From: a virus
Length of the DNA stretch: 64,000 bases
IMG/VR virus record: IMGVR_UViG_3300032116_000125
Coordinates: 1-64,000 of that record
Reading direction: 5' to 3' (one strand)
Made by a program: the position numbers and the translations under genes. Under the pieces are notes generated by a model, which worked only from the letters and a program-made list of their open reading frames with translations, did no database searches and was not told where the DNA came from. Shown here one piece after another: positions 5,960-36,250 of this stretch (position 1 is its first letter; the number at the start of each line of letters is the position of its first letter).

Positions 5960-7534
5960 ATGACAGACCTATCAGATGTTGAAGAATCCGGCGCACAAGA
6001 CGACGTTGGTGACTATCCGCAGGAAGAACTGGACGAAACATCAGCAGAGTTTGTTGACCAGTTGGTCATGAAACTAATCGTGTTTACGGAAGAGTTCTGT
6101 AATGTGAGCCTCTTCCCCTACCAAGTACCGATTGCCTATCGCATCATTGAATCCATCGTGTTGGGTGATGGTGAGGAGTTGACCTTGGTTGCCACCCGCC
6201 AGTCGGGTAAGTCCGAGGTGCTTTCCAACGTGATGGCTTCCATGATGGTCATCCTCCCGCGCCTGTCCAAGGTGTATCCCACATGGCTGGGTAAGTTTGA
6301 GAAGGGGTTCTGGTGCGGCGTGTTTGCCCCCGTGGAGGATCAGGCCGACACCGTGTTTGGGCGTATTGTCAGCAAGTTGACCAGCGAGCACGCCATGGAT
6401 TTCCTGCTGGACCCGGAGATTGACGACAAGGCGTCTTCGGGGGGTGCGCGAGGTAAAGGGCGCATTATTAGCCTTAAAAAGTCTGGATCGCTTTGTCGCA
6501 TGCAAACTTGTAACCCTAAGGCTAAGATTGAATCAAAGACCTACCACTTTGTAATGATTGACGAGGCTCAGGAAGCCGACGAGTTCATGATTTCAAAGTC
6601 CATCAAGCCCATGTTGGCCTTTAATAACGGGTCTATTGTCCTCACGGGAACTGCTACCCGTAGTAAGTCATACTTCTATAAAATGATTCAATTCAATAAA
6701 CGGCGTGACACTAATGCCCGCCGTGGGCACAGGCAGGCCCATTTTGAGTATGACTGGCGCACAGCGGCCAAATACAACGATAACTACGCCAAGTTCATTG
6801 CGAAAGAAAAGACCCGCATCGGAGAGGACTCCGACGAGTTCCAGATGTCTTATTGCAATAAATGGATTCTGGAAAAAGGCATGTTTGTCACCGAGGAGCG
6901 CATGGAGCGCCTCTACGACCCCTCCATGACCCTCATTAAGAAGTGGTGGCGTAGCCCGATTGTTATGGGCATAGACGTAGCCCGAACGAATGACTCCACC
7001 GTTGCCACGGCGGTGTGGGTGGACTGGGATCACCCGGACGGTTTCGGGTTCTTTGAGCACCGTGTCTTGGACTGGCTGGAAATCAACAATGTGGAGTGGG
7101 AACAGCAGTACTTTGAGATCATTGACTTCATCCGAAACTTTGATGTGTACCGGATCGGAGTTGACTCTCAGGGCGTCGGCGGGGCCGTCACGGAGCGCCT
7201 CCAGTTGCTTCTACCTGAGATTGAGGTCGTGGCCGTGTCCTCGGACGCCAAGGCCCAGAACGAGCGCTGGGTGCACCTCATGGAACTCATCCAGCGTGAG
7301 CAACTGATTATCCCCGGGCACTCCAAGGCCCGGAGAACCCGGTCGTGGAAAAAGTTCAACCAGCAGATGTGTGACTTGGAGAAGGTGTACCGAGGCCCGT
7401 ACCTGCTGGCGGCGGCTCCGGACGAGAAGGGCGCGTTTGACGACTTCCCAGATTCACTGGCAATTGCCTGTTCCATGACCGTTTTAGACGTAATGCCGAT
7501 GGTTGAATCTTTCAACTCCCCCTTCTACACATGA
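5960..7534 (+). CDS. terL: terminase large subunit
   Basis: Walker A TRQSGKS, Walker B VMIDEAQ, motif III LTGT, nuclease GIDVAR and DDFPDS. Confidence 0.95.
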   Translation: MTDLSDVEESGAQDDVGDYPQEELDETSAEFVDQLVMKLIVFTEEFCNVSLFPYQVPIAYRIIESIVLGDGEELTLVATRQSGKSEVLSNVMASMMVILPRLSKVYPTWLGKFEKGFWCGVFAPVEDQADTVFGRIVSKLTSEHAMDFLLDPEIDDKASSGGARGKGRIISLKKSGSLCRMQTCNPKAKIESKTYHFVMIDEAQEADEFMISKSIKPMLAFNNGSIVLTGTATRSKSYFYKMIQFNKRRDTNARRGHRQAHFEYDWRTAAKYNDNYAKFIAKEKTRIGEDSDEFQMSYCNKWILEKGMFVTEERMERLYDPSMTLIKKWWRSPIVMGIDVARTNDSTVATAVWVDWDHPDGFGFFEHRVLDWLEINNVEWEQQYFEIIDFIRNFDVYRIGVDSQGVGGAVTERLQLLLPEIEVVAVSSDAKAQNERWVHLMELIQREQLIIPGHSKARRTRSWKKFNQQMCDLEKVYRGPYLLAAAPDEKGAFDDFPDSLAIACSMTVLDVMPMVESFNSPFYT

Positions 7535-9754: not shown

Positions 9755-10007
9755 GGAGTTACTCTCGCGTACGCCCGTGAACTGGGGTTGCGGTATTGCA
9801 ACTTTGCGCGAAACCCTAAACGACGAAGACAGGAACACCCTTGATTTGTCGCTTGACCGTATCAAGGCAGACACCGGTCAGGGTCGTTCTAAGGTGTACT
9901 CTTCATCATGGCTTGAAAAAGTCCTTAAAAACCACGGACACTCAATCAGCAGAAGCACGATTGAACGACACATAAGAGGGAAGTGCAGTTGTGGCAAGTC
10001 TCAGTGA
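9738..10007 (+). CDS. small HTH-like protein with C-terminal Cys cluster
   Basis: TAAGGAG RBS, TTG start; LKNHGHSISRSTIERHIRGKCSC. Confidence 0.6.
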   Translation: MSELSKELLSRTPVNWGCGIATLRETLNDEDRNTLDLSLDRIKADTGQGRSKVYSSSWLEKVLKNHGHSISRSTIERHIRGKCSCGKSQ

Positions 10008-11130
10008 CGATCTCAACACCCCGCCGTCAAAGGTAACCCTCGGCAAGATTGCCGACCTCCTTCAGCGCAATAACATTGACGTTGACGAGGTTGGTTCAAT
10101 CAAGCGGGTGTCTCTGTACCAGAGCATGATCAAGAACGACGTTGGTCAGGCCGAGGTGCACGACCTCATGGGCATCCAGTTCAACCCCAAGTGGGCAGAC
10201 GGACCCGAGTGGCCGGTGGTCCAACCCGGCCCCGCAATCAAGGTACCCATTCGTAAAGCCACCGCCAAGGACACCGAGGGCTATAAGACGGCGGTAATCC
10301 TTCCCGATATGCAGATCGGCTATTATCGGGGGCCCAACGGACTGGAGCCCACTCATGACGAAGAAGCGCTTGCCATTGCTCTGGCAATTACCCGAAAACT
10401 CAACCCCGATAGAGTCGTCATGGTCGGAGATAATCTGGATTTCCCCGAGTTTGGAAAGTACCGGTTATCTAGTGCCTACGCTCTCACAACCCAAGCCTCC
10501 ATTGACCGAGCCACAACGCTCTGCGCGGAAATCCGGGCGGCGGCGCCGAACGCAGAAATAGATTGGATTTCTGGTAACCATGAAGAACGCCTCAGTAATT
10601 TCCTTATTGACAACGCAAAAGCCTCGTTCGGCATTCGGAAAGGTAACACTCCAGATTCTTGGCCTGTTCTTAGCGTTCCTTATCTATGTCGTTTTGATGA
10701 TTACGGGATTAACTATGTGGCTGGTTATCCGGCTGGACAAGTCTGGATTAATCAAAGGCTTAAAGTCATTCATGGCAACAAAGTCCGGTCTAATGGTTCA
10801 ACCGCTCACGCCTACCTCAACGACAGCAAGGTCAGCGTCGTCTACGGGCACATTCACCGTAGGGAATGGTGCGAAAAGACCCGTCAGGATTGGGACGGTG
10901 CAAAGACCGTCATGGCGGCGTCACCGGGCACGTTAGCCCGCTGTGATGGGGCTGTGCCCAGCACCAAGGGCGGAATTGACTTGGACGGGCGCCCTTTGAC
11001 CATTGTTGAGGACTGGCAACAGGGCCTCGCGGTGGTGACGTATGAGGAAGGCGAAGGGCAGTTCTGGTATGAGCAGGTTCCGATTCACAATACGAGTGCC
11101 TTTTTCCGTGGTAAGGTTTACCAGCCGTAA
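9991..11130 (+). CDS. calcineurin-like metallophosphoesterase
   Basis: PDMQ, GDNLD, GNHE, IHG and GHIH motifs. Confidence 0.85.
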   Translation: MASLSDDLNTPPSKVTLGKIADLLQRNNIDVDEVGSIKRVSLYQSMIKNDVGQAEVHDLMGIQFNPKWADGPEWPVVQPGPAIKVPIRKATAKDTEGYKTAVILPDMQIGYYRGPNGLEPTHDEEALAIALAITRKLNPDRVVMVGDNLDFPEFGKYRLSSAYALTTQASIDRATTLCAEIRAAAPNAEIDWISGNHEERLSNFLIDNAKASFGIRKGNTPDSWPVLSVPYLCRFDDYGINYVAGYPAGQVWINQRLKVIHGNKVRSNGSTAHAYLNDSKVSVVYGHIHRREWCEKTRQDWDGAKTVMAASPGTLARCDGAVPSTKGGIDLDGRPLTIVEDWQQGLAVVTYEEGEGQFWYEQVPIHNTSAFFRGKVYQP

Positions 11131-12057: not shown

Positions 12058-13728
12058 ATGCCTGTTGATTTTTGGTCGCCATCCTATAGAGCCTCGTCCA
12101 GTGACCTGACGGTCGCCATCTCGCCCCTTGGGCTGGTGGAGTTGGCTGACGAAGAGTTTGAGGTCCATGGCCCCCGCCTGAATCGCTACTCGTCCTGCTG
12201 GGCGTGGTATTTGGGACACCACTGGTCGTACCGCCGTGAGATGGGCGAGCAGAACATCACCATGAACTACGTCCGTACCATGTCGGACTACATCACGAAC
12301 TTCTGTTTTGGTAAGGGCATCCAGTTCAAAGTGCCTGAGCAGAACGGCGCCATCATTCCCCATCTCCTCCATGAGGTCTGGGAAAACCATAACTCTAAGC
12401 ATTATGTGCTTTGGGAGATGGGTCAGTTGGCCGGTGTTACTGGCGATTGCTTTGTCAAGGTCGCTTACGAGGAGCCGTACGTTGACCCCGCTGGTATTGG
12501 TCATGCAGGCCGAGTTCGTATTATCCCCCTTAACCCCGCGCACTGCTTCCCTGAGTACCACCCCCATGACCGCGACCGTATCCTGCGTTTTAAACTGAAG
12601 TACCGCTTCTGGGGAACCAGCCCCGAGGGTACCCGGCAGGTCTATACCTTCACGGAAATCCTCACTGACGAGTCGGTAGAGCAATATATCAACGACGAGT
12701 TGATTGACCAGTACCCGAACGCCATTGGTCTTATCCCTATTGTCCACATTCCTAACATGACGATCTCGTCGTCGCCATGGGGTCAGTCGGACATCTGGGA
12801 CATCATCTCTCTGAACCGTGAGTTGAACGAAAAGATGACCGAGGTCTCGGACATCATCAACTACCACGCCGCCCCGGTGACCATCATTACCGGCGCTAAG
12901 GCCAGCCAGTTGGAGCGTGGCCCTAAGAAGGTCTGGGCCGGTCTACCCAAGGACGCCTCGGTGTACAACTTGGAGTCCCGTGGCGAGATGGCTGGCGCTC
13001 TGGAGTACATCCAGTTCATTAAGCGGGCTATGCACGAGATCACTGGTGTGCCTGAGACTGCATTGGGACAATTCCAACCCGTGTCTAACACCTCTGGCGT
13101 TGCCTTGGCCATCCAATACCAGCCCATGATGAATCGCTATAACCAGAAGAAGATTCACTTTACGAAGGGTCTGGAGAAGGTTAATGAGATCATCATCCGT
13201 ACATGCGCGGTATTTGAGCCTCAAATGCTCCAGTTTAATCCCGGGGTGGCGGCACCTCCCGAGCCCGATCAAGCGTTGGTTCTTGACCCCGCCGACCCCG
13301 TGGTTTACCAGACGCAAATCCACTGGCCGGAACCGCTTCCGGTGGATGTCCTTATCAAACTTAATGAAGTTCAGGCCAAGTTGTCGCTTGGCTTGGAGTC
13401 CAAGCGCGGTGCTCTCAAGATTCTTGGGGAAGAGTTCCCGAACGAGAAAATGCTTGAAATCTTTGAGGAATTGCGTGATGATGCTCTTGATCAGGGTGCG
13501 CTAGATATGTTGCGTGCTCAGATTCAGCAAGCCGTAATGCTAACTACAGGTATTATTCCCGGACAAGAGGGAGAAAGTAGTGTAGTATCTGCGGGAGGTG
13601 AAGCAGGTGGTGGTCCTCTCCCGGGAGTACCAGCCATCGGTGACGCCGAAGGACAGATGATTAACAACATAATCCAAAGGGCATACGGAGCAAGGTTCGC
13701 CCAGCGCCGTTTGCCAGACGAAGAATAA
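12058..13728 (+). CDS. portal protein (SPP1 gp6-like)
   Basis: 556 aa before scaffold/capsid; NYVRTMSD, GVTGDCFV, IPIVHIPN..WGQSD, SNTSGVAL. Confidence 0.9.
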   Translation: MPVDFWSPSYRASSSDLTVAISPLGLVELADEEFEVHGPRLNRYSSCWAWYLGHHWSYRREMGEQNITMNYVRTMSDYITNFCFGKGIQFKVPEQNGAIIPHLLHEVWENHNSKHYVLWEMGQLAGVTGDCFVKVAYEEPYVDPAGIGHAGRVRIIPLNPAHCFPEYHPHDRDRILRFKLKYRFWGTSPEGTRQVYTFTEILTDESVEQYINDELIDQYPNAIGLIPIVHIPNMTISSSPWGQSDIWDIISLNRELNEKMTEVSDIINYHAAPVTIITGAKASQLERGPKKVWAGLPKDASVYNLESRGEMAGALEYIQFIKRAMHEITGVPETALGQFQPVSNTSGVALAIQYQPMMNRYNQKKIHFTKGLEKVNEIIIRTCAVFEPQMLQFNPGVAAPPEPDQALVLDPADPVVYQTQIHWPEPLPVDVLIKLNEVQAKLSLGLESKRGALKILGEEFPNEKMLEIFEELRDDALDQGALDMLRAQIQQAVMLTTGIIPGQEGESSVVSAGGEAGGGPLPGVPAIGDAEGQMINNIIQRAYGARFAQRRLPDEE

Positions 13729-13781: not shown

Positions 13782-14561
13782 ATGAATATTCAGGACGGTG
13801 ACGGGATCGTGATCCCGGTATCCAACGACACTCAGGAAACACCCACGGCTCGCCCGGAAGGTCGTGTTTTCACCGAATCCGAGGTTGAAGCAATTCGCCG
13901 TCAGGAGAAGGACAAACTGTATAAGCGTGTTGAAGACGCTGACGGTCGTGTCCGTACCCTTGAGGAGCAGTTGTCTGTCATCTCTCAGGAGCGCGAAGCG
14001 GCCCGCCAAGAGGCCGCAGAACGAGCCCGCGCCGAGGCGGAGATTCTCCGTCAGCGTGAAGCCGAGGAATTGAGCGCCAAGGAACTTCTCTCCAAGCGTG
14101 AGGACGAGTTCAACCAGCGCATCAATCAGGTGGAGCAGGAATGGCGGAGCAAGTTTGAAGAAATTGAGCGCCAGCGTCAGGCGCAGGAGGCCCTCCTTGA
14201 GAAGGAGCGGCGCATCCAGCAGATTGAGTCTTACCGCCAGCGTCGTATGGCGGAGGAGCAAGAGACTATTATCCCCGAACTTCGTGACCTTATTTCGGGA
14301 AATAGTGAAGAAGATATTGATAATAGTATTGCTGTACTCCGTGAGCGCAGTAATGCTATAATTGAATCAATCCAACAGGCGACTTCCCAAAGCCGTCTGC
14401 GGGGACCGCAGGTAACTGCGCCCCCGACTGGGCCAATGGAAAACCAATCGGAATACCAGACGCTGTCGGCGGATGACATCCGCCAAATGCCGATGGATCA
14501 GTACATGAAAATGCGTGAACGGCTCATGCAAGCGGCTCGGTCCCCCCGAGGGCGCTTCTAA
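13782..14561 (+). CDS. capsid scaffolding protein
   Basis: long E/R/Q-rich coiled coil between portal and capsid; C-terminal helix MPMDQYMKMRERL. Confidence 0.8.
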   Translation: MNIQDGDGIVIPVSNDTQETPTARPEGRVFTESEVEAIRRQEKDKLYKRVEDADGRVRTLEEQLSVISQEREAARQEAAERARAEAEILRQREAEELSAKELLSKREDEFNQRINQVEQEWRSKFEEIERQRQAQEALLEKERRIQQIESYRQRRMAEEQETIIPELRDLISGNSEEDIDNSIAVLRERSNAIIESIQQATSQSRLRGPQVTAPPTGPMENQSEYQTLSADDIRQMPMDQYMKMRERLMQAARSPRGRF

Positions 14562-14599: not shown

Positions 14600-15709
14600 A
14601 TGGCCCTTCCCGCCCCTGTAGGGGGTGCGATCACCGGAGCAGGTCTTGGTTCCATCACCACGACCGGCTACTCCAGCGACGCGACCCTCTCGCCCGCAAT
14701 CCAGCAAATCTGGTCCAAGGAGATTCTGTTTCAGGCGATGCCCGTGCTTCGCTTTGAGCAGTTCGCCGTGAAGAAGACCGAACTCGGCGTCATGCCCGGT
14801 CTGACCATCAACTTCATGCGCTACAACAACCTCAGCGTCAACGAGGACTCGGGTGCGACCCTTACCGAAGGTGTTCGCATGGAGCCCACCTCGCTGTCGG
14901 CTAGCCAGATTCAGATCACCGTGTCTGAGCATGGTCAGGCTGTTGCCGTGACTGAACTCCTGCTCAATGCGTCGTTTGACGACGTCATGGCCTCGTCGTC
15001 GCGCCTCCTCGGCCGTCACATGGCTCAGAGCATGGACATTCAGGCTCGTAACACCCTGTACAAGGCTGGCGTGCCGTTCGGCGGCGGGTCGGCTGTGGCT
15101 CCGAGCGTCGTGTTCGGTCGCACCGCGGCCTCGGCTCGTGGCGCCATCAGCCCCTACGATGCCGGTACCCTCGGCACCGCCTCGGCCCCCGGCTACCTCA
15201 GCCCGGCTTCCATCAAGGACGCCGTGGAGGTGCTCGCTGGTCAGAACATCCCGCGTCTGGGCGACACCTATGTGTGCTTCGTTCACCCGTCGCAGAGCCG
15301 CTCGCTCCGTGACTGGCCGGAGTTCATTGAAGTCACGAAGTACGCCGCCCCCGGCAACTTCATGCTCGGTGAAATCGGCCGTCTGTACGATGTGGTGTTC
15401 ATTGAGACCACGCAGGTCAAGAAGGGCTTGGACGCCACCGCGGCTTCCTCGTCTCTGTACGACCTCGGCGCGACCCTTGACTCGGCTTCGGCCGCTGGCT
15501 TCCAAGAGAACGCTGACGCCTACAACGCCATCATGATCGGTGACAACGCCTTCGGTCACGCCATCGCCCTCCCGGTTGAACTCCGCGACGGTGGTGTCAT
15601 TGACTTCGGTCGTGAGCACGGTCTGGCGTGGTACGCGATCTGGGGCTTCGGAGTCATCACTCACGAGAGCCGCGTGATCCTCAACACCCTCGGTGGTGCG
15701 ATTTCCTGA
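14600..15709 (+). CDS. major capsid protein (N4-gp56-like, HK97 fold)
   Basis: QIWSKEILFQA, PGLTINF, YVCFVHP, GEIGRLYDVVFIET; strong codon bias. Confidence 0.9.
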   Translation: MALPAPVGGAITGAGLGSITTTGYSSDATLSPAIQQIWSKEILFQAMPVLRFEQFAVKKTELGVMPGLTINFMRYNNLSVNEDSGATLTEGVRMEPTSLSASQIQITVSEHGQAVAVTELLLNASFDDVMASSSRLLGRHMAQSMDIQARNTLYKAGVPFGGGSAVAPSVVFGRTAASARGAISPYDAGTLGTASAPGYLSPASIKDAVEVLAGQNIPRLGDTYVCFVHPSQSRSLRDWPEFIEVTKYAAPGNFMLGEIGRLYDVVFIETTQVKKGLDATAASSSLYDLGATLDSASAAGFQENADAYNAIMIGDNAFGHAIALPVELRDGGVIDFGREHGLAWYAIWGFGVITHESRVILNTLGGAIS

Positions 15710-29230: not shown

Positions 29231-29628
29231 GATCAATCTATTTGCCATTTCAATTTAATAATGGAAAAGTTGCAACTACTTCTGATTTTGATGAAATTAT
29301 TAAACAAAAAATCATTGATGTGCTTGCGGTAACCAAAACTGAGCGGCCAATGCGCCCTCGGTACGGTCTTGGTACTTATACCTTTTTGTATGAGCCTGTT
29401 GACCCCCTGATCTGGGAGGACTTTAAACAAGACGCCCTAGTAGAACTCCGTGAGGCCGTGTCGGGTGTACGTATTAACGACATCGTGATTGCCGAGGGGG
29501 ATGGGTCTCGTGGAGAAGAAGAGGGCTCCACGATTTACGTAACTGTTTATTATTCTATAAATCCGTCGCAGAAATCCAGTGTTACACTTACTGTTAGCGA
29601 CATTTTGAACGAGGAAACCTATGGCTAA
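29227..29628 (+). CDS. baseplate wedge gp25/gpW-like
   Basis: TERPMRPRYG, LYEP. Confidence 0.85.
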   Translation: MRSIYLPFQFNNGKVATTSDFDEIIKQKIIDVLAVTKTERPMRPRYGLGTYTFLYEPVDPLIWEDFKQDALVELREAVSGVRINDIVIAEGDGSRGEEEGSTIYVTVYYSINPSQKSSVTLTVSDILNEETYG

Positions 29629-31114
29629 TTTTGATTACACGGCAAGAGACTACAGTAGCGTTCGTGAAGCGCTGTCGGCCCGCGCCTCCCGCTCTATTCC
29701 TGAATGGGTGGGGGACGACCCTTCGGACTTTATGTCCACATTGATTGACCTGTGGGCGTACACCGCTGACACACTTCATTACTACATTGACCGCGCATCC
29801 ACAGAAGCCTTTTTGGGCACCGCGACCCAGCGCGAGAGCGTCTTGGCTCTGGCTAACCTTTATGGCTACACGCCTAATTACCAGCGTTCTGCAACTGCCA
29901 CGTTAAGCCTGACCAATACGGGGGCATCTTCCGTTACTGTCCCGGCCAACACCAAGTTCATATCTACAACGGGGCAGTACTTTTACAATGAGGAAGCGCT
30001 ATCTATCTCCGGTAATAGCACTGGGTCATTGAGTGTGCGCCAAGGCACACTAGTCAGTAGCGAAAGCCTGACTTCCTCCACCGACTCCACCCGTACCAGT
30101 AGCGACGGTACCTTTGGGCAACGGTTCAACATTTATCGTACGAGCGTTGACCCCACCACGGTACGAGTGTTTGTCGCTGAGGGCGCTGGGGGCGCAACAA
30201 AAGAATGGTCGCGGGTAAACACCCTTGTAAGTTACGGACCAGACGACTCAGTATTCTCAGTTTATATAGATTCTAACCAAATAGCGCAAGTAGTATTTGG
30301 TAATGGATTGAATGGGCGCATTCCACCGATTAACGCGCAAATAACCGCGACGTATGGGTATTCAGATGGTTCACTGGGGAATGTGGGTAGCAATACGATC
30401 ACCCGTCTTGCTACGTCGTCACTTCCCACAATAACAACCATTACTAACGTCTCGCCCGCGGCCGGTGGCTTGGACTTTGAAAGTATTGACAGTATCAAGC
30501 GGGCCATTCCGGGTGCACTGCGTACTAGGAGTGGCGCCACCACCCTGTCGGACTTCAGGGACTTGGCTCTTGCTACGCAGGGTGTATCTAAGGCCACTGT
30601 CTCCTACACGGGGTCCTCGTCCAGCGGAGCGTCTATCACCGCCACGGTAGTCCCAGATCAGACAGCCTACCTAACTGATGGAGCGGCGTCAGTCAGCATT
30701 AGCACCGACTTGCGTGACCGAGTTGCTCGGGAACTTCTAGATAACGCCCTTCTTGGGGTTACCCTGATTAGCGTTCCCTCTTCCGTAACCTTCACTAAGA
30801 TTTATGTGTACTTTGATCTGTACGTAAAGTCAAATTACGTACAGTCTGTCGTTGTTGCGGATGTTAAAAACGCGGTAGAAAACCTTTTTGCGTTTACTTC
30901 TGTCTCTTTTGGTCAAGTTGTAAATATCGGAGAGGTTTATCGTACCGCCATGGCTGTTGCTGGCGTGGATTACTTGATAGTCAAGGGCTTCACAACCACC
31001 AGCGGGGGTACGACCACCATTGATAACAGTGGCAAGATTACGGTTGGGGCAACGTCTTTGCCAAAACTTGGTGTTGTAACCATCACCGCCTCAGGGGGAG
31101 TCTCAGCAGTCTAA
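29621..31114 (+). CDS. baseplate J-like wedge protein
   Basis: DYTARDY, YYIDRASTEAFL, FGNGLNGRIP, GGLDFESIDSIK, TLSDF. Confidence 0.9.
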   Translation: MANFDYTARDYSSVREALSARASRSIPEWVGDDPSDFMSTLIDLWAYTADTLHYYIDRASTEAFLGTATQRESVLALANLYGYTPNYQRSATATLSLTNTGASSVTVPANTKFISTTGQYFYNEEALSISGNSTGSLSVRQGTLVSSESLTSSTDSTRTSSDGTFGQRFNIYRTSVDPTTVRVFVAEGAGGATKEWSRVNTLVSYGPDDSVFSVYIDSNQIAQVVFGNGLNGRIPPINAQITATYGYSDGSLGNVGSNTITRLATSSLPTITTITNVSPAAGGLDFESIDSIKRAIPGALRTRSGATTLSDFRDLALATQGVSKATVSYTGSSSSGASITATVVPDQTAYLTDGAASVSISTDLRDRVARELLDNALLGVTLISVPSSVTFTKIYVYFDLYVKSNYVQSVVVADVKNAVENLFAFTSVSFGQVVNIGEVYRTAMAVAGVDYLIVKGFTTTSGGTTTIDNSGKITVGATSLPKLGVVTITASGGVSAV

Positions 31115-34471: not shown

Positions 34472-34600
34472 TCACTTCTTCTTCTTGGGAGCGGCCTTCT
34501 TGGCCGCGGCCTTCTTGGCCGCGGCCTTCTTCTTAGCCGGTCCCTTGCCGTAGCCGGGGTCCTTCTTATTGCTGATTCCACATCCGCATTCCTTGCACAT
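34472..34600 (-). CDS. 42-aa histone-H1-like peptide with N-terminal CxxCGC (not in ORF track)
   Basis: MCKECGCGISNKKDPGYGKGPAKKKAAAKKAAAKKAAPKKKK; start 2 nt after upstream stop. Confidence 0.7.
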   Translation of the reverse strand: MCKECGCGISNKKDPGYGKGPAKKKAAAKKAAAKKAAPKKKK

Positions 34601-34602
34601 TG

Positions 34603-34848
34603 TCATTCCCCCTTTCGGTGCTTCGCAGTTTTCTTGGCGATGCTTTTTGGTTGCTTGACAAATTGCTTGCCCTCGGCGTTGCCCTTGGCCTTGGCACGAT
34701 TCGTAGACGCCTTTTCAGAAGGGGTCAACTCATCCCACGCCTTGTCCGGTAGGTAACGCTTCTTGCCCTTGGACGGCTTTCCATCAGAGGTGCGCCACTT
34801 CTGGTCCGTCCATTCATCAAGGGACTTCTGCGACTCTTTCTTAGCCAT
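34603..34848 (-). CDS. basic protein, DUF5872-like C-terminal half
   Basis: QKSLDEWTDQKWRT...RYLPDKAWDELTPSEK...KQFVKQP. Confidence 0.7.
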   Translation of the reverse strand: MAKKESQKSLDEWTDQKWRTSDGKPSKGKKRYLPDKAWDELTPSEKASTNRAKAKGNAEGKQFVKQPKSIAKKTAKHRKGE

Positions 34849-35042
34849 CAGTCCTTGTAACCCCCGCCCTTCTTCTTGTACTCAGACGCAAGAAGTTGGG
34901 CTTTACGGGCAGACCACTCGCCGGGATCGCCACCCTTTGAACCGGCCTTGATCTTCTTAAACAGTTCCTCACGCATACCCGGCTTGGTGTAATTACCGGC
35001 TTCGTTGACCTTAGATTCGGTCTTCTTTTTCTTAGCGGCCAT
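34848..35042 (-). CDS. basic protein, DUF5872-like N-terminal half
   Basis: YTKPGMREELFKKIKAGSKGGDPGEWSARKAQLLASEYKKKGGGY. Confidence 0.75.
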   Translation of the reverse strand: MAAKKKKTESKVNEAGNYTKPGMREELFKKIKAGSKGGDPGEWSARKAQLLASEYKKKGGGYKD

Positions 35043-35044
35043 GG

Positions 35045-35308
35045 TTACTTTTTTCCTCTATTCCGTGCACGATTCTTAGATGGTTCCTCTGCCACGATTC
35101 CACCATCTTTGGTATGGGACATATCCTTACCACCCTTGCCCATAACCCCACGCTTACGGCGCTCTTCAGCAAGTTCACGACGCTTCTCCTTCTCTTCGGG
35201 CTTAGCGTTGTACTCCTTGTTGTAGGCGTCCTTCTTCTTACGGGCCTCCGGGTTATCCCGGTAATACTGCGCGGTTTCTTTGGGACTACTGGTCTTGCGA
35301 GGAGCCAT
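35045..35308 (-). CDS. basic protein with degenerate HNH-like C-terminus
   Basis: GKDMSH...NRARN; K/R-rich. Confidence 0.6.
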   Translation of the reverse strand: MAPRKTSSPKETAQYYRDNPEARKKKDAYNKEYNAKPEEKEKRRELAEERRKRGVMGKGGKDMSHTKDGGIVAEEPSKNRARNRGKK

Positions 35309-35601
35309 TACCACTTCACCTTGTCAGCCCAGTAAGCGGCTGACATCTTGCCTTTGGCAATGTTCTTGGCATGGCGGGACTTAAAGGAAGCACGCTTGTC
35401 CTTCATGCGCTCGGACTCCCCCGCCTTGGGCTTACCAGCGGTCTCAGCACCCTGCTCGCCAAAGCGAATCGTCTTGACCTGATCGCCCACCTTGGCGACA
35501 ACAATGTGCGACTTGGTCGGGTGGTCCGGCGTTGCCTTCGGCTTGTTGTAACCCGAGACACCGGCTCGCGCCAATCGGGGGTCTTTCTTACTCTCAGCCA
35601 T
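35308..35601 (-). CDS. basic viral protein (DUF5754/DUF6321-like)
   Basis: KTIRFGEQG...RASFKSRH...SAAYWADKVKW. Confidence 0.65.
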   Translation of the reverse strand: MAESKKDPRLARAGVSGYNKPKATPDHPTKSHIVVAKVGDQVKTIRFGEQGAETAGKPKAGESERMKDKRASFKSRHAKNIAKGKMSAAYWADKVKW

Positions 35602-35608
35602 GATTACC

Positions 35609-36052
35609 TCACTTCGTTGATGCGCGGAGTTGCCACGACCACTTCATGTGCATGTCAATCCGCTCTGAAATAAAATTAAGAATACCCTGCTGATTTTCTT
35701 TCTCAGCATCCTTAAATGTAACATACAACTGCTTGATAAGTGCCTCATTGGCCGTCAGCAGTGCCCCGGCCATAGCCTTGGGGGTGGGGGAGACATCTTT
35801 AAAAGCGATGGTACGCATCTCAATAAACTTTTGTAGATTGAAGGGGGCGTACTCATCCAATTTGCGGAGGTTTTCAGCAATCGGGTCAATAGAGCCGTAG
35901 GCGTCCTCGTAGATGTCTGCAAAGAGGCCGTGGTACTGGCTGAAGTCCTGACCCTCTACGTTCCAGTGAAACCCATGGGCCATGAAGTAGAAGGTGACAA
36001 CGTCTGAGAGAAGGGCTTTGAGGGACTTCGTAAGTCCGGTGCTGGATGCCAT
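35609..36052 (-). CDS. dps: Dps / ferritin-like DNA-protecting protein
   Basis: HWNVEG.DF..YH.LF..IY...IDPIAE with ferroxidase His, His, Asp, Glu intact; 147 aa; AAGGAG RBS. Confidence 0.9.
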   Translation of the reverse strand: MASSTGLTKSLKALLSDVVTFYFMAHGFHWNVEGQDFSQYHGLFADIYEDAYGSIDPIAENLRKLDEYAPFNLQKFIEMRTIAFKDVSPTPKAMAGALLTANEALIKQLYVTFKDAEKENQQGILNFISERIDMHMKWSWQLRASTK

Positions 36053-36250
36053 GTGGTCTCCTTGAAAACAGGGCTGGGGCGCTTCAGTAACTCTACACCA
36101 AAGCGCCCCAGCCTGTTTAACCACCACCGGTAAACCGGGCACCGAGGAGAACCACCAACTCGGTCTCCGAAGATTAGCCTCAACAAACCGTGTATGCAAC
36201 ACTTGGCGACGGGTTTGTGTGTATAGTCTCCGGCACACCAAGGAGACCAC
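36053..36250. promoter_or_regulatory. divergent promoter region between dps operon and replication operon
   Basis: GTGTAnAGT -10-like boxes on each strand (36090-36098 minus; 36219-36227 plus); 12-bp inverted RBS repeat; long hairpin 36067-36118. Confidence 0.6.

Follow-up and report, generated by a model that had tools for sequence, protein, structure and literature searches.

A backward-facing island of Dps and small basic protein genes in a freshwater phage, and its possible link to the phage head

Introduction

Why should a tailed phage carry a gene for a Dps protein, and why does this gene face backwards, in a tight row with the genes for five small and highly basic proteins? The question is raised by the first 64 kb of the 74-kb IMG/VR virus record IMGVR_UViG_3300032116_000125 (64,000 nucleotides, referred to as the window), a record with an estimated completeness of 79%; near-identical sequence is present in freshwater metagenome runs from several studies. 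Phage Dps proteins have so far been read simply as host oxidative-stress helpers. The reading that we tentatively favor for the window, at somewhat less than even probability, is that the products of the island are head-interior, DNA-associated (“core”) proteins. Of the possible locations, the phage head appears the most likely, since in close relatives the same Dps forms part of a capsid-assembly protein. Sequence data, structure predictions and the context of the genes are the basis of the whole reading. The island consists of six genes, here called dps and B2 to B6:

35609–36052, minus strand: dps, 147 amino acids, first gene of the island
35308–35601, minus strand: B2, 97 amino acids, phrog_7595
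35045–35308, minus strand: B3, 87 amino acids counted from ATG, phrog_6437
34848–35042, minus strand: B4, 64 amino acids, phrog_17747
34603–34848, minus strand: B5, 81 amino acids, phrog_14910
34472–34600/34606, minus strand: B6, a peptide of 42–44 amino acids

All six open reading frames (ORFs) are found at the positions given in the original prediction, which had also described their tight coupling correctly: in the order from dps to B6, the junctions are a 7-nucleotide gap, a TAATG overlap, a 2-nucleotide gap, a TGATG overlap and an ATGA overlap. A purine-rich stretch resembling a Shine–Dalgarno sequence precedes all six starts. For B3, the alternative GTG start at 35314 in the ORF listing was judged less likely than the ATG. 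As judged from Pfam and PHROG matches, and from the conservation of B6, all six are genuine genes.

Dps of the window clade in head-assembly proteins

The Dps clade represented in the window is also found inside long proteins, of which we identified 83 (44–63% identity). A prohead protease is present in 55 of them, in 51 cases as a Peptidase_S78 domain, i.e., the HK97-type prohead protease, and in four as an XkdF-type protease that is accompanied by DUF6496. Among the remaining long proteins, one has a DUF6321 domain (P0468), and others either contain Hva1_TUDOR or DUF5824 or are extremely long (1664–1740 amino acids). When Pfam was re-run on these proteins, the domain order was protease, Dps, and then about 250 amino acids composed of an acidic linker and a coiled coil, and from its composition this C-terminal part looks like a scaffolding region. 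The gene context of one such protein is informative:

L220:5947–8496 (IMG/VR contig 3300032239_001852): protease–Dps ORF, 849 amino acids; P0389–P0467 are like proteins

This ORF lies directly upstream of the genes for the major head protein and a head–tail adaptor, and beside the portal gene, so that by gene order the fusion occupies the position expected for the protease/scaffold gene. As a separate observation, the portal protein of the same contig (2964–5138, minus strand) has a C-terminal extension matching PHROGs of the polynucleotide kinase/phosphoheptose isomerase type, which would be a further enzyme domain on a head component.

Two fusions connect Dps with families that also occur in islands such as that of the window. 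In P0468, DUF6321 and Dps are followed by a coiled-coil C-terminal region, and in P0122 a Dps-like domain is fused to B4. Both can be regarded, from their domain content, as Rosetta-stone fusions that link Dps with the island families.

Gene neighborhood of free-standing Dps

To describe the surroundings of free-standing Dps, IMG/VR was seeded with Dps, B2 and B6, and each locus was scanned for all island families; the 67 Dps loci counted are those with at least 1.6 kb on either side. In all 67, a small basic family is encoded on the same strand within 1.6 kb of Dps, and at least two such families are present in 62 and at least three in 39. The co-occurrence of these genes in related phages, which the original prediction had anticipated, is thus far beyond chance, but since the 67 loci are from related phages the counts do not represent independent events. 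A stronger argument than the raw counts comes from the diversity of the islands, which show 20 arrangements assembled from seven families (B2, B3, B4, B5, B6, B7 and DUF6321, the last a bona fide member with a Pfam match at 1e-25), together with four types of adjacency to Dps. Dps is at one end of the cluster in every island, and the nearest recognized gene is DUF6321 in 32 loci, B2 in 31, B3 in three and B7 in one, which means that B2 or DUF6321 is the neighbor in 63/67. The nearest gene can sit on either side of Dps, mostly with a gap of no more than 10 nucleotides. Where the flanks are long enough, the island opposes the large genes on both sides (45/45 loci). Judged by this comparison of loci, the island is a conserved unit rather than a quirk of the window genome.

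The protease–Dps loci present the opposite picture. In none of the 26 does a B-family gene lie within 6 kb, which is the reverse of the 67/67 found for free-standing Dps. The prohead protease–Dps–scaffold fusion, and this complementarity between fusion and adjacency, would change the reading of the island toward the virion. Packaged core proteins had been only a secondary option in the original prediction, and it is this option that receives the strongest new support, from the protease/scaffold–Dps fusions and from the occurrence of B2 and B4 as end-domains of virion or ejected proteins described below.

The dependence is one-way. Dps is present in only 2/80 B2-seeded loci, and B4 and B5 are present in about half; for B6, Dps was found in 14 of about 21 assessable loci, and elsewhere B6 belongs to groups of small basic genes that lack Dps. 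Phages without Dps account for far more of the occurrences of B2 and of the split DUF5872 pair (B4 and B5) than do phages with it. The proposal that the basic proteins are partners of Dps accordingly holds as regards their obligate adjacency to Dps and the Rosetta-stone fusions, but not as regards specificity for Dps. Cultured marine phages with B2, B3, B4 or B5 and no Dps are S-CBS2, ICBM2, HMO-2011, SIO1, P12053L and the CRP phages; the homologues are gp046 and its neighbor gp045 in Synechococcus phage S-CBS2, gp31 in Lentibacter phage ICBM2, and gp63 and gp59 in Puniceispirillum phage HMO-2011. They occupy late or structural regions: in S-CBS2 they are flanked by the genes for the major capsid and head decoration proteins, in HMO-2011 they are near a structural protein, and in ICBM2 the homologue follows the endolysin. 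Distant Dps proteins exist in cultured enterobacterial, Aeromonas, Proteus and Clostridium phages. The one such neighborhood inspected, in Salmonella phage 7-11, has Dps standing among nucleotide-metabolism genes with no B2–B6 homologue in 5.4 kb, a case that does not support a tie between Dps and the basic genes as originally stated.

B2, B4 and B5 as parts of larger proteins

The five products B2–B6 have isoelectric points (pI) of 9.9–10.2 and net charges of +9 to +13, in agreement with their initial description as small and highly basic. B2–B5 match PHROG families at 1e-27 to 1e-42, and a Pfam search gave no above-threshold model for any of B2–B6. B2 (pI 10.2; phrog_7595, 2e-42) also has a weak match to an interior part of phrog_220, annotated as “minor head protein and DNA pilot”. 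A HMMER search with a B2 profile retrieved the domain in 1256 clusters at 50% identity, and in the best 150 representatives it is placed C-terminally in 74, free-standing in 38, N-terminally in 27 and internally in 11. Partners in large proteins include SLT lytic transglycosylase, ART-PolyVal and DUF5661, and a further set combines zeta toxin with a cytidylyltransferase-like (CTP_transf_like) domain and a DUF5872 segment. Fold matches of the B2 domain in BFVD are an XkdF-type protease, ChaB, ORF125 of Vibrio phage ICP1 and a 95-residue Tunisvirus protein. By these matches, B2 of the window is a stand-alone copy of an end-domain of large virion or polyvalent proteins.

A similar situation is seen for B4 (phrog_17747, 9e-35), which is a C-terminal tag in many unrelated proteins, among them P0122 (Dps-like), P0239 (ArfA-annotated), P0241 (DUF6321) and P0134 (DUF6496). 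As far as domain architecture tells, B2 and B4 both recur promiscuously at the ends of large proteins that belong to the virion or are ejected. Polyvalent proteins of phages are regarded as packaged and injected (PMC5512222), and the recurrence of the B2 and B4 domains appears to be a hallmark of proteins of this kind. Short repeats of the form [YFM]-A-x-G-G-x-[VT] separate the domains in large B2-carrying proteins (P0375, P0355 and P0120), and the same motif stands before the B4 tag (B4 fusions P0123–P0239); the repeats might serve for processing or as flexible linkers. In P0195, P0237 and P0239, an ArfA-like segment (precomputed PF03889) is combined with the B4 tag, and one ArfA-like/B4 protein carries the source name “alternative ribosome rescue factor”, a hint that some modules of this pool may contact the ribosome.

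B4 and B5 (phrog_14910, 6e-37) exist fused as single proteins in P0202 and P0211, with B5 aligning to the second half of both. By these alignments B4 corresponds to the N-terminal half, and B5 to the C-terminal half, of a DUF5872-like protein. For DUF5872 (PF19197), P0202 scores 26.8 bits (positions 4–109) and P0211 22.4 bits (positions 4–82), against a cut-off of 27.5; precomputed PF19197 labels exist for P0202 and P0211, and B4 and B5 of the window have no PF19197 match. The model of the DUF5872-like protein is of low confidence (predicted local distance difference test, pLDDT, 63), with a best PDB Z score of 3.4. In P0037, B5 is fused N-terminal to B2.

The AlphaFold2 model of B2 (pLDDT 83.7) consists of a short helix, a beta hairpin and two helices, and a comparison with the PDB gave no fold match (Foldseek best E 1.2; VIA best Z 2.4). 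Across the family, about eleven polar residues show little or no variation, and homologues are 80–90% identical across more than 600 viral contigs. As regards family membership, DUF5754 (PF19058) has no match on the phage’s own genome at E up to 10; in the B2 family it gives sub-threshold matches in 16/56 members (best E 0.016), and DUF6321 weak matches in 6/56. The named ESM Atlas cluster nearest to B2 is DUF5754 (score 0.94). Taken together, these matches suggest that B2 is distantly related to DUF5754 and DUF6321, with membership not established. Of the family labels given in the original prediction, DUF5754/6321 thus holds for relatives of B2 at sub-threshold level and DUF5872 for the fused B4–B5 proteins at or slightly below the cut-off, but none reaches a Pfam threshold on the window proteins themselves.

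Three further resemblances of B2 were considered. Direct homology to DUF6321 (PF19846) was not supported by hhalign, which against the DUF6321 neighbors of Dps gave a probability of 0.9% over a 15-column motif only. A likeness to uL24/KOW was traced to a single chloroplast protein at E 0.13–0.5, i.e., chance, and in the model helices are predicted where uL24 has strands, with no SH3-like match. The Pfam model Phage_tail_tube_init recurs in 19/56 family members at sub-threshold level (best E 5e-4), and the solved baseplate component 9euf_M matches at E 0.56; both are leads only.

The Dps protein and alternative explanations

The dps product matches Pfam Ferritin (PF00210) at 3.9e-14 (53.2 bits, cut-off 24.5) and phrog_3636 at 1.3e-26. 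Solved chains of the Dps type that match at E ≤ 1e-3 number 21, and the closest is the Dps-type stress protein 8ff9 (4e-17), in which identical residues align with His29, Trp30 and His41. The ferroxidase ligands His29, His41, Asp56 and Glu60, together with Trp30, are invariant across 18 relatives, and by its ligands the protein would be ferroxidase-competent. The chain is acidic (pI 5.8). Neither the window Dps nor any of the 18 relatives has a Lys-rich N- or C-terminal tail: about eight residues with one Lys precede helix A, and the C terminus ends in ASTK. A Dps with all four ligands and no Lys-rich tail, as described in the original prediction, was thus confirmed. The Lys-rich DNA-binding tail is found in some Dps members and is not defining for the family. 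Because the window Dps is both tail-less and acidic, it is not expected, based on general knowledge of Dps, to bind DNA on its own. Cellular relatives gave no useful host clue, as they come from a few metagenome-bin contigs with 25–55% identity.

The properties of this Dps are compatible with a phage chromatin inside the infected cell, in which the basic proteins would bind replicating DNA and recruit or bridge Dps into a cytoplasmic nucleoprotein that protects or compacts it. Such a role would agree with an acidic, tail-less Dps with intact ferroxidase ligands, with polycationic neighbors that are obligate over 20 arrangements, with the DUF6321–Dps and Dps-like–B4 fusions, and with a control region shared divergently with the replication genes. 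We nevertheless consider it unlikely, because it leaves unexplained both the usual embedding of the Dps clade in prohead protease/scaffold proteins and the presence of B2 and B4 as end-domains of SLT, ART-PolyVal and XkdF proteins; furthermore, B2, B4 and B5 occur mostly without any Dps.

The latter fact, that the small genes are widespread without Dps, fits with an absence of any joint function, where Dps would be an auxiliary gene for iron or peroxide tolerance, and the basic genes unrelated accessories that accumulate in a hypervariable, separately transcribed slot. Published phage Dps genes were interpreted as helpers against oxidative stress (PMC8008677), in cultured phages Dps stands among nucleotide-metabolism genes without basic partners, and the composition of the islands is combinatorial, with 20 arrangements. 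To this explanation we likewise assign a low probability. It does not account for the co-occurrence in every one of the 67 loci, or for B2 or DUF6321 as the closest gene in 63 of them, on either side and with mostly minimal gaps; nor does it account for the covalent fusions of Dps to DUF6321, B4 and head-assembly domains, and for the absence of the basic genes from the neighborhood where Dps is fused.

That the small proteins are instead ejected early effectors of the polyvalent type, for anti-defense or host takeover and directed at a conserved target in the host, with Dps only a passenger, is quite improbable: fusions of B2 to ART-PolyVal, zeta toxin and NMN-adenylyltransferase-like domains, the weak LPD22 (B7) and LPD7 (P0004) matches, the 80–90% identity of B2 among very different phages with its many invariant polar residues, and the fusion of B4 to an ArfA-annotated segment would all agree with it, but no catalytic motif or known fold was recognized (best PDB Z 2.4 for B2 and 3.4 for the DUF5872-like model), the strict adjacency to Dps is unaccounted for, and packaging would be needed here as well, an overlap with the head-interior reading. 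Lysogenic conversion, considered because the position of the island is that of the lambdoid lysogeny slot, was rejected on the weak evidence that the 74-kb, 79%-complete record yielded no integrase, resolvase or ParB_N.

A possible role in the phage head

If the island products are indeed head-interior proteins, Dps would be loaded into the procapsid. In many relatives this would take place covalently, with Dps held between the prohead protease and the scaffold-like C-terminal region, and for the free Dps of the window phage the product of the touching gene (B2, or DUF6321 in relatives) would be the likely adaptor or co-cargo. Within the particle, Dps would clear Fe2+ and H2O2 that could otherwise nick the densely packed DNA. 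The basic proteins would bind DNA, and some may exit with it at ejection, as might the large proteins with the same domains, and B6 would contribute a thiol or metal site through its HypB-type CxxCGC head on a tail of DNA-binding type. A Dps dodecamer measures about 9 nm and is too large for capsid pores or the tail channel, a size that would favor a role inside the particle. The strict pairing with basic proteins, the backward-facing island and the insertion of Dps in a capsid-assembly protein point to iron and peroxide protection of DNA within the particle.

Several observations weigh against this picture. The island is antisense to the late genes and divergent from replication, for which early or middle expression fits better than late expression. 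Among the scanned head-module genes of the window, no prohead protease was recognized, so that the loading route of the relatives would not be available here, and the free Dps has no targeting peptide that could be recognized. The S-CBS2 homologue of B2 carries the annotation “hypothetical”, and it is a neighbor that is annotated as structural. The nearly invariant polar residues of B2 make a specific ligand or catalytic site likelier than a generic DNA condenser. Finally, in a quick tree the free-standing Dps proteins form one well-supported group whose nearest sampled neighbors are all fused forms. This in itself speaks for the head-interior reading, but the direction of change cannot be taken from the tree, as the sampling was not the same for free and fused Dps.

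A broader claim, that tailed phages of a widespread freshwater lineage load a functional Dps cage into their capsids, either by fusion or by means of a B2/DUF6321 adaptor, is best viewed as doubtful at present. The same applies to its corollary, that the Dps-loaded virion would carry its own antioxidant, DNA-associated “core” and be a natural counterpart of ferritin-loaded encapsulins. If true, it would represent a novel means by which phages in the environment delay their decay, a first role for common families of “unknown” proteins (phrog_7595 and the Tlr6F-like, DUF6321 and DUF5872 types), and a connection between phage procapsids and ferritin-carrying encapsulins that is amenable to experiment. 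If false, there is still a conserved gene neighborhood in at least 67 related IMG/VR contigs.

Comparison with known systems

Cellular Dps proteins (8ff9, HP-NAP 1ji4 and Listeria Dps 1qgh) share with the window protein a four-helix ferritin-like domain of the same length, and the His-His-Asp-Glu ligands with the neighboring Trp. Unlike these, the window Dps is phage-encoded, acidic and without a Lys-rich tail; proteins of its type are always beside small basic genes when free, and the clade is mostly found in prohead protease–scaffold proteins. As for phage Dps, genes reported as oxidative-stress auxiliary genes are known from the gut “Gratiaviridae” and from Lactobacillus phages (PMC8008677). 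These, and the copies in Salmonella phage 7-11 and its relatives, are likewise Dps-family genes in tailed phages, but they are only 24–35% identical, and their descriptions include no island, fusion or partner genes.

Encapsulins with ferritin-like cargo offer a more distant parallel, since the fused relatives likewise couple an iron enzyme of the ferritin superfamily to the assembly of a head shell; the coupling is genetic only, and an HK97-type shell is assumed from the S78 protease and PHROG “major head protein” matches. The differences are considerable. The capsid here is one that packages DNA, the coupling is by protease/scaffold fusion and not by a short C-terminal targeting peptide, and the putative cargo in the fused relatives is of Dps type and not Flp or IMEF. 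A 2026 study of HK97-fold shells considers that procapsids may co-assemble cargo-like proteins, or that scaffolds may keep biochemical activity (PMC13669383), and the protease–Dps–scaffold fusions are candidates for the active scaffold or cargo envisaged there.

The internal proteins of T4 (IPI–III and Alt) and the polyvalent proteins (PMC5512222) are small and basic or multi-domain, packaged with DNA and injected. In analogy to the polyvalent proteins, domains B2, B4 and B7 co-occur with ART-PolyVal, zeta toxin and LPD-type domains. Compared with the T4 internal proteins, the island proteins are without sequence similarity, free-standing, and have no recognized capsid-targeting sequence. Tlr6F/DUF5754 is a family of polinton-like viruses, virophages and giant viruses (PMC4642659, PMC12220804). 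Together with DUF6321 and DUF5872 it likewise comprises small, basic and very widespread DNA-virus proteins, a comparison that gives no mechanism.

Phage Dps genes, packaged internal and polyvalent proteins, and the DUF families (as names only) were thus already known. Our literature search found no description of the counter-oriented island, of the strict adjacency of Dps to B2/DUF6321, of the prohead protease–Dps–scaffold architecture or of the complementarity between fusion and adjacency.

B3, B6 and B7

B3 (pI 10.1; phrog_6437, 4.5e-27) is present in 17/67 Dps islands, and adjoins the B2 homologue in Synechococcus phage S-CBS2. It had been described as an HNH remnant, a label that found no backing from Pfam or NCBIfam, where no HNH profile matched. 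Among named ESM Atlas clusters, the one closest to B3 has HNH_3 in 67% of its members (score 0.92), a language-model lead only, and B3 is possibly a degenerate HNH_3-like protein.

Homologues of B6 are 37–44 amino acids long in 23 distinct versions, and the protein is intact as a peptide. Their layout is an N-terminal MCxxCGCG, a conserved KKDPGYGKG stretch and a Lys/Ala/Pro tail. In 15 aligned versions, Met1, Cys2, Cys5, Gly6 and Cys7 are invariant, as is Gly8. The NCBIfam model HypB_prefix_1 gives a sub-threshold match (E 0.0045; 18.3 bits, cut-off 30). B6 shares the MCxxCGC motif of HypB, but at 42–44 amino acids with a Lys/Ala tail it is missing the HypB GTPase domain. The MCxxCGC head is presumably the counterpart of the N-terminal high-affinity nickel site of Escherichia coli HypB. 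Two variants (L055:9673–9771 and L068:6069–6170) have the MCxxCGCG head followed by a metallothionein-like tail, with about nine Cys in 33 amino acids.

B7, the seventh island family, does not occur in the window. It is a protein of 55 amino acids with an AGRPYPNL motif, found at L009:11011–11178 and in 36 other Dps loci, and it weakly matches LPD22, “large polyvalent protein associated domain 22” (E 0.005). A weak match to LPD7 was obtained for P0004.

Layout of the window and control elements

The island is located on the minus strand between the plus-strand head and tail genes and a plus-strand replication block. The surrounding features are:

5960–7534, plus strand: terminase, head gene
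9991–11130: metallophosphoesterase (phrog_20266, 3e-80), between terminase and portal within the head module
12058–13728, plus strand: portal, head gene
13782–14561, plus strand: coiled-coil protein of 259 amino acids, rich in Glu, Arg and Gln, without a PHROG match
14600–15709, plus strand: major head protein, PHROG match
29621–31114, plus strand: baseplate-type tail gene
34502–34526, plus strand: B6-tail hairpin, a perfect 10-bp GC stem with a T-rich run, from a scan for terminator-like elements
36053–36189, no strand: control region separating dps from the divergent plus-strand gene for the replication initiator
36072–36113, minus strand: dps leader hairpin, 18 bp and GC-rich, followed by a T-run, from the same type of scan
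from 36190, plus strand: replication block with winged helix-turn-helix initiator, IstB/DnaC-like loader, DnaB and primase

The 259-residue coiled-coil protein is the sole gene separating the portal from the major head protein. The plus-strand replication genes start immediately upstream of the island, which is divergent from them as originally described. Its description as the only substantial antisense operon also stands to the extent tested: the four longest other minus-strand ORFs of the window have no PHROG match, and two of these overlap plus-strand genes with PHROG matches (major head protein and SSB). These ORFs look like shadows of plus-strand genes.

A scan for sigma-70 consensus promoters found no site in the divergent control region, and an Rfam search of the island and the dps leader gave nothing close to threshold. 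The dps leader hairpin lies 8 nucleotides upstream of the Shine–Dalgarno sequence, and the leader has a predicted fold of −71.5 kcal/mol (z = −4.3 compared with shuffled sequences); the hairpin, which is very stable, could be an attenuator, an mRNA-stabilizing element or an operator. At the opposite end of the island, the B6-tail hairpin is built from the Lys/Ala codons of B6, and is located 39 nucleotides past the stop codon (34463) of the converging plus-strand late gene, which encodes 264 amino acids. This hairpin in the B6 coding sequence may serve as a terminator of the converging late gene or late operon.

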